Shown here piece after piece: positions 1,387 to 7,900 of a stretch of DNA of 7,900 nucleotides. Position numbers and translations under genes: made by a program. Each line of letters starts with the position of its first letter. Position 1 is the stretch's first letter. Source of the DNA: a virus (lineage: Duplodnaviria; Heunggongvirae; Uroviricota; Caudoviricetes); the IMG/VR virus record IMGVR_UViG_2778261030_000021, positions 1-7,900 of that record. One strand, written 5' to 3'. The notes beneath the pieces are model-generated. The model was given only the letters and a program-made list of their open reading frames with translations, was not told the origin of the DNA and did not search any database.

Positions 1387-1659
1387 TTAGCTGTCCTGGT
1401 AATTGCGCCATATTTCATCACCAGCACCATCTATACCCATTTCGGCATAAGTGCGATCGACTGCCTTTTTCAGGTCTCCGAAATTATCCGGCGGCTCCGG
1501 TGCCCTCTGTGCCTTCCTTGAACATTCCAGCCGTCGCATCGTGATGTGATGCCGTTCCTTGTCTGTCTCCACCAGCTGCATGACTTCACCCCATCGCGCC
1601 GCCGCCCTCCGGTAAAAGCCTTTCGCCTCCAGTTCCTCCGCTATGCGGTCATGTACCAT
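1387..1659 (-). CDS. PerC-family-like small transcriptional activator, 90 aa (start moved to ATG 1659; the track ORF begins further upstream at a non-ATG codon)
   Basis: MVHDRIAEELEAKGFYRRAAARWGEVM... resembles the AEKLExKGLWRRAA signature I recall for PerC/Pch proteins. Strong SD GAGGGGGGG immediately upstream of ATG 1659. Confidence 0.5.
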   Translation of the reverse strand: MVHDRIAEELEAKGFYRRAAARWGEVMQLVETDKERHHITMRRLECSRKAQRAPEPPDNFGDLKKAVDRTYAEMGIDGAGDEIWRNYQDS

Positions 1660-1669
1660 CGTCCCCCCC

Positions 1670-4729: not shown

Positions 4730-5050
4730 TTATCTCAGATTTGAATCAGTATTCGCTTTCTCTATGGCATTTAATGCATCTGTGGCATTTTCAATGGTGC
4801 ACCGTAACGAAATATCAAACTGCCCAAGCATTGCCAGTAACAAGCCAATATTACCCATGTCAATGCGCATAGCCTTTTCGTCATATTCCTCATTTTCTGA
4901 CGCATGCCACATCAGGCTACCAATTGACGAAACAGCCATTGATATATTGTCAGTAGCCCCATCCGCAGCGGAATAAACCTTTTTAGCAATATCATGCTCA
5001 CAGTTAAAATGCGGATTAATCAGGTACTGGTAATTGGTCATGTCAGGCAT
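4730..5050 (-). CDS. Hypothetical acidic protein, 106 aa
   Basis: ATG 5050..5048 overlaps the end of the upstream small gene. Strongly acidic composition (about 17 D/E against 7 K/R). Confidence 0.55.
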   Translation of the reverse strand: MPDMTNYQYLINPHFNCEHDIAKKVYSAADGATDNISMAVSSIGSLMWHASENEEYDEKAMRIDMGNIGLLLAMLGQFDISLRCTIENATDALNAIEKANTDSNLR

Positions 5051-5246
5051 GGAACACCCCCTGACGAATACGGGCGGCGAATACCATCACGCAGCCATCA
5101 GGAGATTGCTGACGCGCGTCCTGTTCGCTGGTGGCCTCAATGGTAATCACGCGCGGTTGTGCCGTGCTCAGGGCGATAAAACGCCAGATGTATTTATTCA
5201 GGTTGTGCGAGTCCCGCCCTTGCGGGTGTGTGGTATGATTTAACAT
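5043..5246 (-). CDS. Small first gene of the leftward operon, 67 aa (possibly Icd/Kil-like; function uncertain)
   Basis: ATG 5246..5244 with GAGGT 5-6 nt upstream; MLNHTTHPQGRDSHNLNKYIWRFIALSTAQPRVITIEATSEQDARQQSPDGCVMVFAARIRQGVFHA. It is the C-terminal 67 codons of the 341-aa track ORF, which I reject as a whole. The Icd-like guess rests on position only. Confidence 0.5.
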   Translation of the reverse strand: MLNHTTHPQGRDSHNLNKYIWRFIALSTAQPRVITIEATSEQDARQQSPDGCVMVFAARIRQGVFHA

Positions 5247-5342
5247 AGCTACCTCGATATTCTTGCTATCGTTGGTGGTTAGACGCCCGGTTAGTGTTAG
5301 CGCACTGCCGGGTTTCGTCGTTTCTGCACCTTGCATCAACAA

Positions 5343-5396
5343 GGTGTTTAACACCAATTTAAGCCCTGGTGTTAAACACGTCAAGTGTTGAACACT
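5343..5396. promoter_or_regulatory. Three 13-bp palindromic operator-like sites (G/A)GTGTT-N-AACAC(C/T) in the divergent promoter region
   Basis: Directly read: 5343-5355 GGTGTTTAACACC (perfect), 5368-5380 GGTGTTAAACACG (one mismatch), 5384-5396 AGTGTTGAACACT (perfect). The third overlaps a plus-strand -35-like TTGAAC (5388-5393), with a weak -10 CATACT at 5411-5416. Confidence 0.55.
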
Positions 5397-5445
5397 TATT
5401 TTTTTTCCTGCATACTGCATTTGTTTTTTGTAAGGGGTACACAAC

Positions 5446-5625
5446 ATGGCGACAAAAGCAGTAAACGCAAAATCACAAACAGTTGCGGCAAGGGTTCCGC
5501 ATGAAGTTATGAACAATGTTGAGGCGGTAAAAATGCCTGGTGAAAGTACAGGGCAGTTTGTAACAGCAGCATTAAAGCGAGAAGTTGAATACCGCCAGCG
5601 TCGCAAGGCCAAAGAGCAGGAATAA
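5446..5625 (+). CDS. Small DNA-binding protein, probable ribbon-helix-helix fold, 59 aa
   Basis: Below the track's size cut-off. ATG 5446 with AAGGGG 8 nt upstream; MATKAVNAKSQTVAARVPHEVMNNVEAVKMPGESTGQFVTAALKREVEYRQRRKAKEQE. Beta-strand (TVAARVP), helix, Gly turn, helix pattern typical of Arc/CopG-type proteins. Confidence 0.5.
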   Translation: MATKAVNAKSQTVAARVPHEVMNNVEAVKMPGESTGQFVTAALKREVEYRQRRKAKEQE

Positions 5626-5682
5626 CCATCACCAGCGCCGTGGTGTAAGGTATTACGGCGCATTGCTATGCAGGACAACACA

Positions 5683-5856
5683 ATGACCGATAAAGAATTG
5701 ACCAAAACATTATCACCGGCACGGAAAAGACGGCGCAGAAAGATAGAGCATGAATCAGAAAGATTCGCGCCATGTGCTTTTGCCCTTGAGCAATTCCTTA
5801 AAGAGTACAGGGAAAAGCGCTCATTGCAGGTATGGCAACGAACTGAACCAGACTGA
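5683..5856 (+). CDS. Hypothetical Arg-rich small protein, 57 aa
   Basis: ATG 5683 with AGGA 7 nt upstream (the track's longer ORF starts at 5668). Contains ARKRRRRK; rare AGA/AGG/CGG codons. Confidence 0.4.
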   Translation: MTDKELTKTLSPARKRRRRKIEHESERFAPCAFALEQFLKEYREKRSLQVWQRTEPD

Positions 5857-5950
5857 TAGCATTGCCCACCAGCCTGATAGCGACTATCATTGCCGTTCTT
5901 ATGTTTGGGATCACACACACAAACGGCGCAGCGGGTTATCTGTTCAGAAA

Positions 5951-5979
5951 GGCGGCTCCATTTCGGGGCCGCTTTTTTT
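5951..5979 (+). terminator. Intrinsic terminator of the plus-strand two-gene unit
   Basis: Stem 5952-5959 GCGGCTCC pairs with 5965-5972 GGGGCCGC (one G-U), 5-nt loop, then T7 at 5973-5979. Confidence 0.7.
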
Positions 5980-6120
5980 ATTCCTGAAAAACCCCAATTT
6001 TGTTGTTTTTCAGTTTCACCAGGGCGAACGAATCCCCGCCCACGTTCGGGCGCATATTCAATCTTCATGGTTATATCTCTGTATTAGTGGATGTGTGGCG
6101 GCTGCGTGCCGCCAGCGTGA

Positions 6121-6309
6121 TTAATGAACTGCCTTGCAGCTATCCTTCCAGGCCAGAACCTCGGATAAAGACCAGCCAACGGAACGACCGCCAAGTTTAC
6201 GACGTGATGGGAATTGTCCGGCCTTTTCCAGGCGGTAGCGGCATGAGCGGCTAAGGCCTGTTAGCTTTTCGCATTCTTTTTCACGTATAAACCGATCAGT
6301 GCTTAACAC
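6121..6309 (-). CDS. alpA: AlpA-family phage transcriptional regulator / excisionase-like HTH protein, 62 aa (GTG start)
   Basis: EKLTGLSRSCRYRLEKAGQFPSRRKLGGRSVGWSLSEVLAW matches the AlpA signature I recall (TG.SRST.Y......FP....LG.R.V.W...E...W). GTG at 6309..6307 with AAGGGG 5 nt upstream; no in-frame ATG is available. Confidence 0.8.
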   Translation of the reverse strand: MLSTDRFIREKECEKLTGLSRSCRYRLEKAGQFPSRRKLGGRSVGWSLSEVLAWKDSCKAVH

Positions 6310-6682: not shown

Positions 6683-7900
6683 TTATTTTCTTCTGGCTAC
6701 TGGTAGCGTGGTTACGTTTTCATGTGTTCCCGCCAGTATCCCTAACCGCTCCATCCACATATCCAGCGCATTGCGTTTAGCATCCAGATAACGGGAATGA
6801 TTATAAACTCGCTGCATTCCTGGCATCTGGTGGCCTGTAAGCTGCTCCACGACATGCGGATCAACGCCTAAATCGTTCAGCATGGTTGTAAAGGTGCGCC
6901 GGATGTCATGCAGTGACCAGTGAGGGTGATTAAGCCTCCTGTGCGCTAATCTTCCATACTGCGATACGCTGGCCTCCTGTTTCACTGCCCCCAGCAATAA
7001 GCCCGTGTGCCTGTTCTGCTCCACCAGCTGCGTGACGAACGGCAGGATCGCTTCCGGTATGGGCCGGAATATTGCGACCTTCGTTTTGCTGTGCTCCTTC
7101 GGAACGGTCCATAGCATTTCCGTAAAATCCCACTCCCCGATCTCTGATAACCTCAGTTCTACCGTTCTGGCTCCGAAGACAATCAGGAGGCGGATTAACG
7201 CGACGTAGTAAGGGGAAAATATTTTTTTATCCAGCGCCTGCAATAACTCGCCCAGTTCTTTGGTGCTTAAGACACGTTCGCTTATATCCGGTTTTTTCCC
7301 AACGTCCGCCACGTTCAGATCGTCCAGAACGTTGCTGATTGCATAGCGCCGCCTACGGCAGAACTTAAGCGCCTGTTTGCACGCCTGTAGCACGAATCCG
7401 GCAGTAACAGGCGTTCGCTTTGCCACCTGGTCAAAACAGGCCAGCCAGTGCCGTAGCTCGCATTTATCCAGCGGCATAGCACCAATCTGCTGTATTACGT
7501 GATTATTAAGTCGCCTTTTCAGGGCGATATAATCCACGCGGTTTTCCTTTACGTAAGACTCAAGCCAGTAGGTGAGCGCATCGCCAACCGTTACGGGCTT
7601 TAACGCTTCCTGTACGGTGTAATTCATCTCATGACGTGGATTTTTCCCCTCAGCCAGCCATGCGCGGCACTGGGCGGCTTTTTCCCTGGCTGCTTTCAGA
7701 CTCAGATCAGGATAATTTCCCAGCTTAATACGTTCCGGTCGTGTCTCTCTTCCCGTTCCTGCCCTGTAAGTGAAATACCAGGTTAATTTCCCTGATGTTA
7801 AATATTTCACGCTCAGATTTCCGCCATCGCTATAAAACGTGTTTTTCTCCGCTGGCTTACCATGAAGTTTCCTTAGCAATGTGTCGCTCAGTTTGTTCAT
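6683..7900 (-). CDS. int: Tyrosine recombinase / phage integrase (P4-type), 405 aa
   Basis: 405-aa ORF starting with ATG exactly at the window edge (the true start could lie upstream). Integrase-like C-terminal region including HDIRRTFTT and the tail ...MQRVYNHSRYLDAKRNALDMW with candidate catalytic Tyr. Confidence 0.88.
   Translation of the reverse strand: MNKLSDTLLRKLHGKPAEKNTFYSDGGNLSVKYLTSGKLTWYFTYRAGTGRETRPERIKLGNYPDLSLKAAREKAAQCRAWLAEGKNPRHEMNYTVQEALKPVTVGDALTYWLESYVKENRVDYIALKRRLNNHVIQQIGAMPLDKCELRHWLACFDQVAKRTPVTAGFVLQACKQALKFCRRRRYAISNVLDDLNVADVGKKPDISERVLSTKELGELLQALDKKIFSPYYVALIRLLIVFGARTVELRLSEIGEWDFTEMLWTVPKEHSKTKVAIFRPIPEAILPFVTQLVEQNRHTGLLLGAVKQEASVSQYGRLAHRRLNHPHWSLHDIRRTFTTMLNDLGVDPHVVEQLTGHQMPGMQRVYNHSRYLDAKRNALDMWMERLGILAGTHENVTTLPVARRK

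Follow-up and report, generated by a model that had tools for sequence, protein, structure and literature searches.

A candidate ribbon-helix-helix repressor switch with co-varying operators and a SymR-like antisense RNA in an EcCICFT073-type phage satellite

The control region of an Escherichia coli phage satellite carried three exact palindromes, to which the small ribbon-helix-helix (RHH) protein encoded beside them most likely binds. In an initial annotation of the stretch of DNA analyzed here (the window, 7,900 nucleotides), a repressor switch with several operators had been read in this region, flanked by a leftward operon and a plus-strand RHH gene, and this reading held up: the sites overlapped both predicted promoters, kept their positions in about 70 related loci and co-varied with the linked protein. 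We consider it probable that the explanation holds as a whole, comprising RHH operators, repression of the leftward promoter (PL), autoregulation, specificity set by the protein's beta-strand and a second lock formed by an antisense RNA. Binding itself, its repressing and not activating effect, and the way in which induction comes about are inferred from sequence. The switch would be of an ordinary type, in a place where none was recognized, with an unusually clear series of strand-operator co-variation. Whether Gram-negative satellites of this kind have a repressor at all was called unclear in 2018 (PMC6092414), and we found no assigned repressor in later open-access papers or preprints mentioning EcCICFT073. 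Our searches of open-access papers and preprints likewise returned no RHH repressor in satellites and no function assigned to YlcI/YnfO proteins, the family to which the small protein belongs. EcCICFT073 carries the same module as the window, and this model element itself would gain a concrete repressor candidate with mapped candidate operators. The natural series of strands and operators could serve as a data set on RHH recognition and a source of orthogonal parts and, if the proposal is true, exchangeable immunity cassettes would let several islands share one cell.

By gene order and identity, the window is part of an E. coli phage satellite, a Gram-negative PICI of the EcCICFT073 type. The element has the int-alpA-(regulatory zone)-pri/rep-ori order, the length of about 11 kb and the capsid-related late genes of a PICI, without a full virion gene set. 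An 11-kb island inside tqsA of strain PM4-5 was 99.9% identical to the window and contained PerC, major capsid, head decoration and terS genes, the last three forming the end of the island. EcCICFT073 was collinear with this island gene for gene and 93-100% identical on either side of the cassette, which places the dyads in the regulatory zone of an element of a familiar kind. Helper-phage-dependent induction, excision and packaging are experimental findings for EcCICFT073 itself only (PMC6092414). The following features of the window frame the control region:

6683-7900, minus strand: int (ORF list and profile searches)
6121-6309, minus strand: alpA, AlpA-family regulator (Pfam PF05930, 65 bits), convergent with the RHH gene
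5946-5979, plus strand: predicted intrinsic terminator of the rightward transcript (predicted fold, then U7)
5683-5856, plus strand: small basic ORF, 57 aa from its second ATG (62 aa from 5668), predicted to be co-transcribed with the RHH gene
5446-5625, plus strand: 59-aa YlcI/YnfO-family RHH gene, the proposed repressor (ORF list and NCBIfam)
5043-5246, minus strand: Icd-like gene, 67 aa, first gene of the leftward operon and predicted target of the antisense RNA (NCBIfam NF033153, 68 bits)

The predicted terminator folded strongly on the plus strand (-21.7 kcal/mol, z -5.4) and weakly on the minus strand (z -0.1). The small basic ORF was absent from many loci, among them those of Xenorhabdus. 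The leftward operon ran from the Icd-like gene through a hypothetical gene, DUF4222, a D5-type primase and SSB to a PerC/ANR-like gene. The Icd-like ATG at 5246 was preceded, six bases upstream, by a Shine-Dalgarno sequence (GAGG, 5255-5252), and the stop codon of the gene overlapped the start of the next (4730-5050). PGAP annotated a longer Icd-like CDS beginning at GTG 5354, within the first dyad; judged on this context, ATG 5246 and not GTG 5354 is the credible start. A tblastn search of the phage collection with the Icd-like protein (E ≤ 0.01) returned only one satellite-like record.

Both a reading of the sequence and a pattern search recovered the three GTGTT-N-AACAC dyads of the initial annotation, as exact copies of GTGTTNAACAC at 5344-5354, 5369-5379 and 5385-5395, with centers at 5349, 5374 and 5390 and spacings of 25 and 16 bp exactly as first read. 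A repeat search grouped the three copies as one family, and exact GTGTTNAACAC occurred nowhere else in the window. Allowing up to one mismatch gave four matches against 0.33 expected, a count reached by 0 of 200 dinucleotide shuffles. The fourth match (6299-6309) was made up of the first codons of alpA; because the same coding sequence is common to elements that use other operator types, we regard the match as a coincidence and rejected it as an operator. The three dyads overlapped back-to-back sigma-70-like promoters, both predicted from consensus matches:

5343-5355: putative operator O1, GGTGTTTAACACC, a perfect 6-1-6 palindrome directly after the leftward -10
5356-5384, minus strand: predicted leftward promoter PL, with -35 TTGACG at 5384-5379, a 17-nt spacer and -10 TAAATT at 5361-5356 (9/12 consensus match)
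5368-5380: putative operator O2, GGTGTTAAACACG, inside the leftward 17-nt spacer and abutting the leftward -35
5384-5396: putative operator O3, AGTGTTGAACACT, a perfect palindrome that covers the rightward -35 and touches the leftward -35
5388-5416, plus strand: predicted rightward promoter PR, read by eye, with -35 TTGAAC at 5388-5393, a 17-nt spacer and -10 CATACT at 5411-5416 (8/12 consensus match, just under the threshold of the promoter scan)

Transcription from PL was predicted to start at about 5349, the center of O1, upstream of the Icd-like, hypothetical, DUF4222, primase and further genes, and predicted PR would drive the RHH gene and the small ORF. As first proposed, the third dyad overlapped the plus-strand -35, with O3 covering the -35-like TTGAAC at 5388-5393. 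Repeated sites thus lay over core elements of the predicted promoters, at the PL start (O1), in the PL spacer (O2) and on the PR -35 (O3), a placement that would suit repression of both divergent promoters. The PL -35 (CGTCAA on the plus strand) was kept in 11 of the 12 loci chosen to represent every cassette type, the twelfth (L003) having TTCAA. A PR -10-like hexamer (CATACT, TATACT, TATATT, TACAAT or TATGAT) was present at the same distance in most cassette types, and Klebsiella locus L014 had no clear -10 match at that distance. We found no LexA box in the region.

The 59-aa protein matched the YlcI/YnfO family profile (NCBIfam NF041551) with 59.7 bits against a cut-off of 30, its residues 9-50 aligning with profile positions 1-42, and had no match in Pfam-A. 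It showed the features of the RHH (Arc/MetJ/CopG) fold, namely an N-terminal beta-strand and two helices, the second preceded by a turn of the G-x-S/T type; the predicted elements were a beta-strand at residues 11-17 (QTVAARV), helix A at 19-28 and helix B from residue 35. RHH proteins form dimers in which a two-stranded antiparallel sheet enters the major groove and strand residues set specificity. In the small protein the variable residues 11-15 lay within the predicted strand and, over eight strand classes, changed along with the inner 5-6 bp of the operators. A family-profile sequence search of solved structures gave no match, a Foldseek search of the PDB gave nothing significant, and no sequence relation to Arc or Mnt was detected. 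YlcI and YnfO (DUF3950) of the cryptic prophages DLP12 and Qin share their NCBIfam family with the window protein, and a Klebsiella variant of the small protein resembled YlcI in sequence. K-12 ylcI, unlike the window gene, adjoins nohD/cos and has no repeated operator-like sites upstream; with this other context and without operator repeats, it was ruled out as a model of the same switch.

Relatives were gathered by three routes. A search with the small protein, restricted to a single genome for each species, gave 15 loci; a scan of 2.9 million viral contigs for the dyad pattern alone gave 73 loci with two dyads each; and diverged homologues were reached by their protein identifiers. The shared layout comprised int, alpA, the small gene convergent with alpA, the intergenic region and the leftward operon, with locus L095 lacking a convergent alpA. 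In about 70 related loci the sites held their positions relative to the small-gene ATG, at -77 (abutting the -35 motif), at about -100, and at either -32 (just past the rightward -10) or -61, as their sequence shifted in step with residues 11-15 of the small protein. The series comprised eight strand types and seven operator types, all of the form GTG-N5/6-CAC:

Residues 11-15 QT(V/I/L)AA, in the strand KSQT(V/L)AARVP: operator GTGTTNAACAC (GTGTT-N-AACAC)
Residues 11-15 (K/R)KLEA, in the strand KS(K/R)KLEARVP: operator GTGTCAGCCAC
Residues 11-15 AQKKI, in the strand KSAQKKIRFP (Klebsiella): operator GTGyACCCyCAC
Residues 11-15 QSVTA: operator GTGTAAGACAC (locus found via protein identifier)
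Residues 11-15 QSLKS: operator GTGTGGCCCAC (locus found via protein identifier)
Residues 11-15 QALKA: operator GTGTGGCCCAC (EcCICFT073)
Residues 11-15 KRFDV: operator GTGTCGGACAC (locus found via protein identifier)
Residues 11-15 QALRA: operator GTGTAGACCAC (locus found via protein identifier)

Conservation of the dyads in related elements, on which the initial annotation had staked its proposal, was complete within the window's own strand type, with three upstream copies in 47 of 47 loci sharing the strand KSQTVAARVPH; this cassette type was present in 494 of 5426 complete E. coli genomes (9%). A site equivalent to O1 occurred in every cassette type, at -98 to -103 from the RHH ATG (-112 in L097), and O2 lay at -76 to -78, directly before CGTCAA, in all aligned cassette types except that of Klebsiella L014 (-63). 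O3 was an extra site seen only in the QT(V/I/L)AA class. A fourth site just past the rightward -10 was present in L031, L046 and L066 and lost in the window lineage; an operator in this PR-proximal place occurred in all other classes, and its loss here counts against the proposed explanation. The association also held in the reverse direction: 55 of the 73 two-dyad viral contigs encoded the small protein about 50 nt away, all with an SQT(V/I/L)AAR strand. The co-variation is partly confounded by linkage of DNA and protein within the swapped segment, and the argument for the RHH protein as binder is drawn from the agreement of the 3-4 sites in each cassette and from the RHH N-terminal half being the only protein-coding determinant of that segment. 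Since many of the loci are closely related, the independent evidence lies in the eight strand classes and four mosaics and not in the number of loci.

The binder had originally been left open among the RHH protein, AlpA and a helper-phage repressor; natural mosaics favored the first, opposed the second and lent the third no support. The window and EcCICFT073 shared near-identical AlpA (59 of 62 residues) and Icd-like proteins (62 of 67), an identical small ORF and flanks of 93-100% identity, yet from 5300 to 5600 identity fell to 43-77% and the EcCICFT073 operators were GTGTGGCCCAC. The Icd-like protein and the small 57-aa ORF were on this account ruled out as binders, the small ORF being identical in EcCICFT073 and so not a specificity determinant. 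In L017 a window-like AlpA (61 of 62 residues) accompanied an unrelated and unannotated Arc-like RHH ORF placed after two GGTAATTACC palindromes. L018 had another integrase and another AlpA (38 of 69 aligned positions) and the same RHH protein with three exact dyads. In the fourth mosaic, P0027, the small protein was identical to the window protein over residues 32-59 and differed in its N-terminal half and in its operators. The cassette was also present in L095, where the leftward operon began with KilA-N, without the Icd-like gene and the antisense RNA. Across the loci compared, no protein determinant other than the N-terminal half of the small protein went with the site sequence in every case.

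These comparisons make it extremely unlikely that the dyads are AlpA sites from which the operon is activated or repressed, even though AlpA is known to regulate these islands and to activate genes downstream (PMC6092414). Near-identical AlpA proteins occurred with three operator sets (GTGTTNAACAC in the window, GTGTGGCCCAC in EcCICFT073 and GGTAATTACC in L017), and an AlpA of only 55% identity accompanied the same dyads in L018. The one-mismatch dyad that overlaps the alpA start would fit such a role for AlpA, but it is coding sequence common to elements of other operator types. In L095, moreover, the cassette sat in another gene set whose only AlpA-like candidate was a single weak HTH_17 match within the leftward operon, with no convergent alpA. 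The natural mosaics therefore rule against AlpA as the binder. It is also highly unlikely that a protein of the helper phage or host, such as a phage repressor or Cro-like protein, binds the dyads and couples the satellite to the state of its helper, with the RHH protein irrelevant. Helper phages do induce such islands via an unidentified factor (PMC6092414), and short palindromes are generic operator shapes, but the site sequence followed the linked RHH strand in at least seven classes, which a factor supplied in trans by a helper would not track, and the region had no LexA box. The search for the same dyad in helper phages that was proposed with the initial annotation was made on phage records and viral contigs and likewise gave no support for such a factor: blastn of 5247-5445 against phages matched over the RNA hairpin part only, and the scan of viral contigs yielded satellites and environmental contigs. 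The 59-aa protein had no tblastn match in 50,697 phage records. The 55 viral contigs that carried the RHH gene were satellite-like, and the remaining 18, which lacked the small protein, were unrelated environmental contigs with GC contents of 31-68%. At least eight of these encoded other small RHH-like ORFs beside the dyads, which, if anything, supports the view that palindromes of this shape are RHH sites.

If the RHH protein is the binder, it might still only autoregulate, in the manner of toxin-antitoxin or CopG-type proteins, or act as an activator, leaving control of the leftward operon to AlpA and the antisense RNA. We think this unlikely: two of the three sites lay on PL, in its spacer and at its start site, and their placement was the most conserved feature of the module. 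Sites inside the promoter core are repression positions and not activation positions, and there was no conserved toxin partner, the downstream small ORF being absent from many loci. The dyads could also act as RNA, O1 and O2 forming a perfect 13-bp hairpin (5344-5356/5367-5379) that terminates or stabilizes a transcript. This inverted repeat is 100% complementary and was listed by the scan as terminator-like on the minus strand, but the hairpin is placed at the predicted start of leftward transcription or upstream of it and has no U-tract, and in classes with asymmetric sites (GTGTCAGCCAC, GTGTGGCCCAC) O1 and O2 are direct repeats that cannot pair. On the strength of these direct repeats the hairpin or terminator was ruled out, and we give a role of the dyads as RNA almost no credence.

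Next to the operators, the first reading had pointed to a GC stem (5286-5290/5308-5312) as a possible contributor within the leftward leader. The stem was real, but it is not primarily a feature of that leader: it is the core of a longer conserved hairpin (5282-5296/5303-5316), which forms the terminator hairpin of a predicted plus-strand antisense RNA.

5246-5325, plus strand: predicted SymR-like cis-antisense RNA, about 80 nt (Rfam match, covariation and fold)
5231-5239, plus strand: extended -10 element of the antisense RNA, TGGTATGAT, within the first codons of the Icd-like gene (read from the sequence)

From its 5' end, the predicted RNA consists of a first hairpin (5248-5252/5274-5279 and 5255-5259/5267-5271), a UUAGA that is conserved and single-stranded, the terminator hairpin and a U-rich tail; its fold had a free energy of -34 kcal/mol (z -4.9). 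The extended -10 was kept in relatives, including variants that improve the -10 and alter Icd-like codons in doing so (e.g., TGGTATAAT in L020). It predicts an RNA start at 5245-5247, beside the Icd-like ATG at 5246, so the RNA would be fully complementary to the Icd-like leader, to the Shine-Dalgarno sequence of that gene and to its start codon. In an alignment of 24 diverse copies of the region, 96% of cells were paired and 12 of 24 pairs showed compensatory changes; none of 500 shuffles reached any of the measures, and slid controls gave 33-54% pairing. A tally of pair types counted about 80 of 573 cells as G-U pairs on the plus strand, which would be A-C mismatches on the minus strand, pointing to selection on the plus strand.

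Rfam SymR (RF01809) matched 5247-5319 on the plus strand with 28.4 bits (E 0.036); as the gathering score of the family is 61, we call the RNA SymR-like and do not assign it to SymR. A covariance model (R1) built without SymR matched annotated K-12 symR in the correct place and on the correct strand (30.2 bits, E ~4e-6), scored 68.7 bits in EcCICFT073, and also had matches in the phages JEP4 and PS-1 and in one Klebsiella phage, each of them lying opposite a gene's 5' end in antisense orientation. The predicted RNA has the layout of SymR, with its 5' end at the target start codon, two hairpins and the 77-80 nt length class (about 77 nt in SymR). Both have a promoter within the target gene, and the linkers (SymR UUGUGAUUAG, window RNA UUGGUGGUUAG) and terminal loops (SymR GUGUUGGCGCAC, window RNA GUGUUAGCGCAC) are similar. 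SymR blocks translation of symE (PMC4147584); the window RNA differs in its target, an Icd-like gene heading an operon and not SymE, in the lack of a LexA box and in its sub-threshold Rfam score. Mageeney et al. described P4-type C4/isrK RNAs in some PICIs. Rfam C4/isrK (the P4-type CI immunity RNA) had no match in the window at E ≤ 1, which rules out that identity for the RNA described here. The RNA region was present in 1299 of 5426 complete E. coli genomes, roughly a quarter, and in 27 of 30 sampled rows it lay under over-extended Icd-like CDS calls, never annotated as RNA. A SymR-like antisense RNA family in satellites and phages may have been hidden by these calls.

In the scheme we consider probable, RHH dimers on O1, at the start site, and on O2, in the spacer and abutting the -35, would shut off PL and its replication operon from the Icd-like gene to the primase, and O3, covering the -35 of the RHH gene itself, would make synthesis of the repressor self-limited. 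Beta-strand residues 11-15 would set which operator is read, and strand and operators together would constitute a swappable immunity cassette with at least seven specificities. As a second lock, constitutively made SymR-like RNA (about 5246-5325, plus strand) would pair with the first gene of the leftward operon at its ribosome-binding site and start codon, so transcripts escaping repression would remain untranslated, and through coupling the RNA would also block the downstream genes. For induction, the most likely route would be helper-triggered alpA transcription that reads leftward through the convergent RHH gene into the operon, which the weak minus-strand fold at 5946-5979 could allow; alternatively, a helper anti-repressor may act on the RHH protein. 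Helpers switch on alpA, and over-expression of AlpA alone induces excision and replication of EcCICFT073 (PMC6092414), so the proposed RHH lock cannot be absolute and may be secondary to AlpA control.

An additional open frame spanned the whole of this region:

5043-6068, minus strand: uncertain open frame of 341 codons that shares frame and stop with the Icd-like gene nested in it (ORF list)

Beginning about 50 nt past the stop codon of alpA, the frame crosses the RHH gene in antisense orientation and then the operators and the antisense RNA target. The Icd-like frame was open for 279 codons upstream of its ATG, its first ATG being at 6068. In most independent cassettes it was open for 137-383 codons, and the other two frames closed within 0-14 codons; we found no protein-level conservation of the long nested frame. 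It also changes within the swapped segment, and it recalls eta/kil of satellite P4. In P4, translation of the nested eta/kil genes from a late, Vis-linked transcript defeats immunity (PMC10111431). By analogy, ribosomes translating the nested ORF would cross the operators and the SymR-like RNA target and defeat both locks without inactivation of the repressor. A combined proposal, which we put forward tentatively as possible rather than likely, would be that the YlcI/YnfO RHH protein is the unrecognized master repressor of EcCICFT073-type PICIs, that its hypervariable strand and GTG-N5-CAC sites form a recombining cassette with at least seven specificities between conserved flanks, and that induction works by override, through AlpA read-through and eta-like translation of the nested ORF.

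The window has the gene order of P4, from int through an alpA homologue and a nested pair made up of a long ORF and a short one for killing or division inhibition to the primase, and in both an RNA-based lock, which is predicted for the window, acts on the leader of the replication operon (PMC10111431). In P4, unlike in the scheme proposed for the window, that lock is a sense-strand CI RNA that causes termination, and there is no protein repressor. The closest analogue in role would be Stl/Rpr of Gram-positive PICIs and, in logic, the immI region of phage P22. Stl proteins are larger helix-turn-helix proteins that are inactivated by binding helper proteins, and we know of no anti-repressor for a system of the window type. 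The SaPI repressors Stl/Rpr resemble the proposed silencer of the window in being divergent from the replication operon, between the int and pri sides (layout from PMC6092414). The window differs in that the candidate repressor is a 59-aa RHH protein with alpA placed between int and its gene, and in that, from the work on EcCICFT073, expression of AlpA is enough for induction.

P22 immI contains the RHH repressors Mnt and Arc, the divergent promoters Pant and Pmnt and the sar antisense RNA. As proposed for the window, its repressors are small RHH proteins with operators inside close divergent promoters, and a short cis-antisense RNA, with its promoter within the first gene, covers the ribosome site of that gene. 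The window has one repressor gene and not two, the module would control satellite replication and not an antirepressor, the 11-13 bp GTG-N5-CAC operators are present in 3-4 copies, and the RNA has no Rfam match to sar. In the P22-like phage JEP4 the match to model R1 was found in the equivalent place, antisense to the 5' end of a Rha gene.

In the related element of E. coli FDAARGOS_946 (L017), AlpA and the flanks were the same as in the window, and the position of the RHH gene and its operators was occupied by other features:

L017 3280-3289 and 3310-3319: two GGTAATTACC palindromes, upstream of the ORF below
L017 3320-3493 (+): unannotated Arc-like RHH ORF of 57 aa (MSTPLEKRSPPYQMRLPEDF...)

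In L017 the repressor-operator cassette is thus replaced by a non-homologous one. Relatives of the window's operator class also varied: L031, L046 and L066 carried a fourth site, TGTTGAACACC, immediately past the rightward -10 (CATACT), where the window lineage reads TGCATTTGTTT (5411-5430 compared with these three loci). Instead of the fourth site, the window has a 12-nt inverted repeat whose arms (5413-5424 and 5452-5463) lie on either side of the RHH gene's Shine-Dalgarno sequence and ATG. A dyad copy with one mismatch (GTGCTTAACAC, 6299-6309) overlaps the GTG start of alpA; we rejected it as part of the switch since it also occurred in L017 and in the model island EcCICFT073, both of which have other operator types.

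Beyond the satellites, two GGTGTT(A/T)AACACC dyads 23 nt apart were found in unrelated environmental viral contigs, where they adjoined a small RHH-like ORF (MPNKRHPTRKYIGFWGT...) different from that of the window; additional RHH-like ORFs adjoined such dyads in other contigs.

L049, L073, L074, L078, L091 (also L047, L079, L085): environmental contigs with the paired dyads

The same palindrome may have been put to convergent use here.

A long frame and a hairpin were also noted in and near the probable switch region:

5043-6068 (-): long open frame, made up of the 67-aa Icd-like gene and its upstream extension
5946-5979 (+): terminator of the rightward transcript, a strong hairpin followed by U7 (-21.7 kcal/mol, z -5.4)

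A further 279 codons are open upstream of the Icd-like gene in the same frame, whose first ATG (6068) lies some 50 nt past the alpA stop. On its antisense course the frame crosses the RHH gene as well as the operators and the target of the antisense RNA. In most independent cassettes this frame was open for 137-383 codons, with the other two frames shut within 0-14 codons; the exceptions were L002, L007/L009, L066 and L097. The arrangement is similar to the nested eta/kil genes of P4, and PGAP annotated parts of the long frame as 'Icd-like' pseudogenes. Read leftward, 5946-5979 forms only a weak fold (z -0.1), and folding predictions indicate that it is a one-way terminator separating the transcription units of alpA and RHH, which converge on it. 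Automated annotation hides the module, because in RefSeq L001 the Icd-like CDS (5043-5354) starts at a GTG (5354) within operator 1, the stretch matching 5627-6068 is called a pseudogene and the small ORF and antisense RNA lack annotation, as does the RHH gene of L017.

The model of the antisense RNA, for which satellite loci were used, also matched the following:

L099 1461-1550 (+): model match
L100 1464-1553 (+): model match
L101 1461-1538 (+): model match
L102 1831-1922 (+): model match

These four matches lie in phage JEP4 (an immI-like region, antisense to the 5' end of a Rha gene), in Pseudomonas phage PS-1, in a lambdoid phage of Klebsiella (directly past cII) and at K-12 symR, with identical geometry in every one. 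The matches suggest that SymR-like cis-antisense RNAs form a broader unannotated family across phages and satellites.

Elsewhere on the island, two features were found:

2424-2537: large hairpin, imperfectly paired, in which GTTCACC/GGTGAAC motifs recur, in the non-coding gap past the primase gene
1387-1662 (-): PerC-annotated gene, weakly matched in NCBIfam by negative regulators of the ANR family

The hairpin, to which Rfam returned spurious microRNA matches, is probably the island replication origin, as the origin is reported downstream of pri in such elements. The ANR-family match (20 bits, under the NCBIfam cut-off) echoes the suggestion that the PerC-like protein of the PICI EcCIMP1 is a possible ANR-type repressor.
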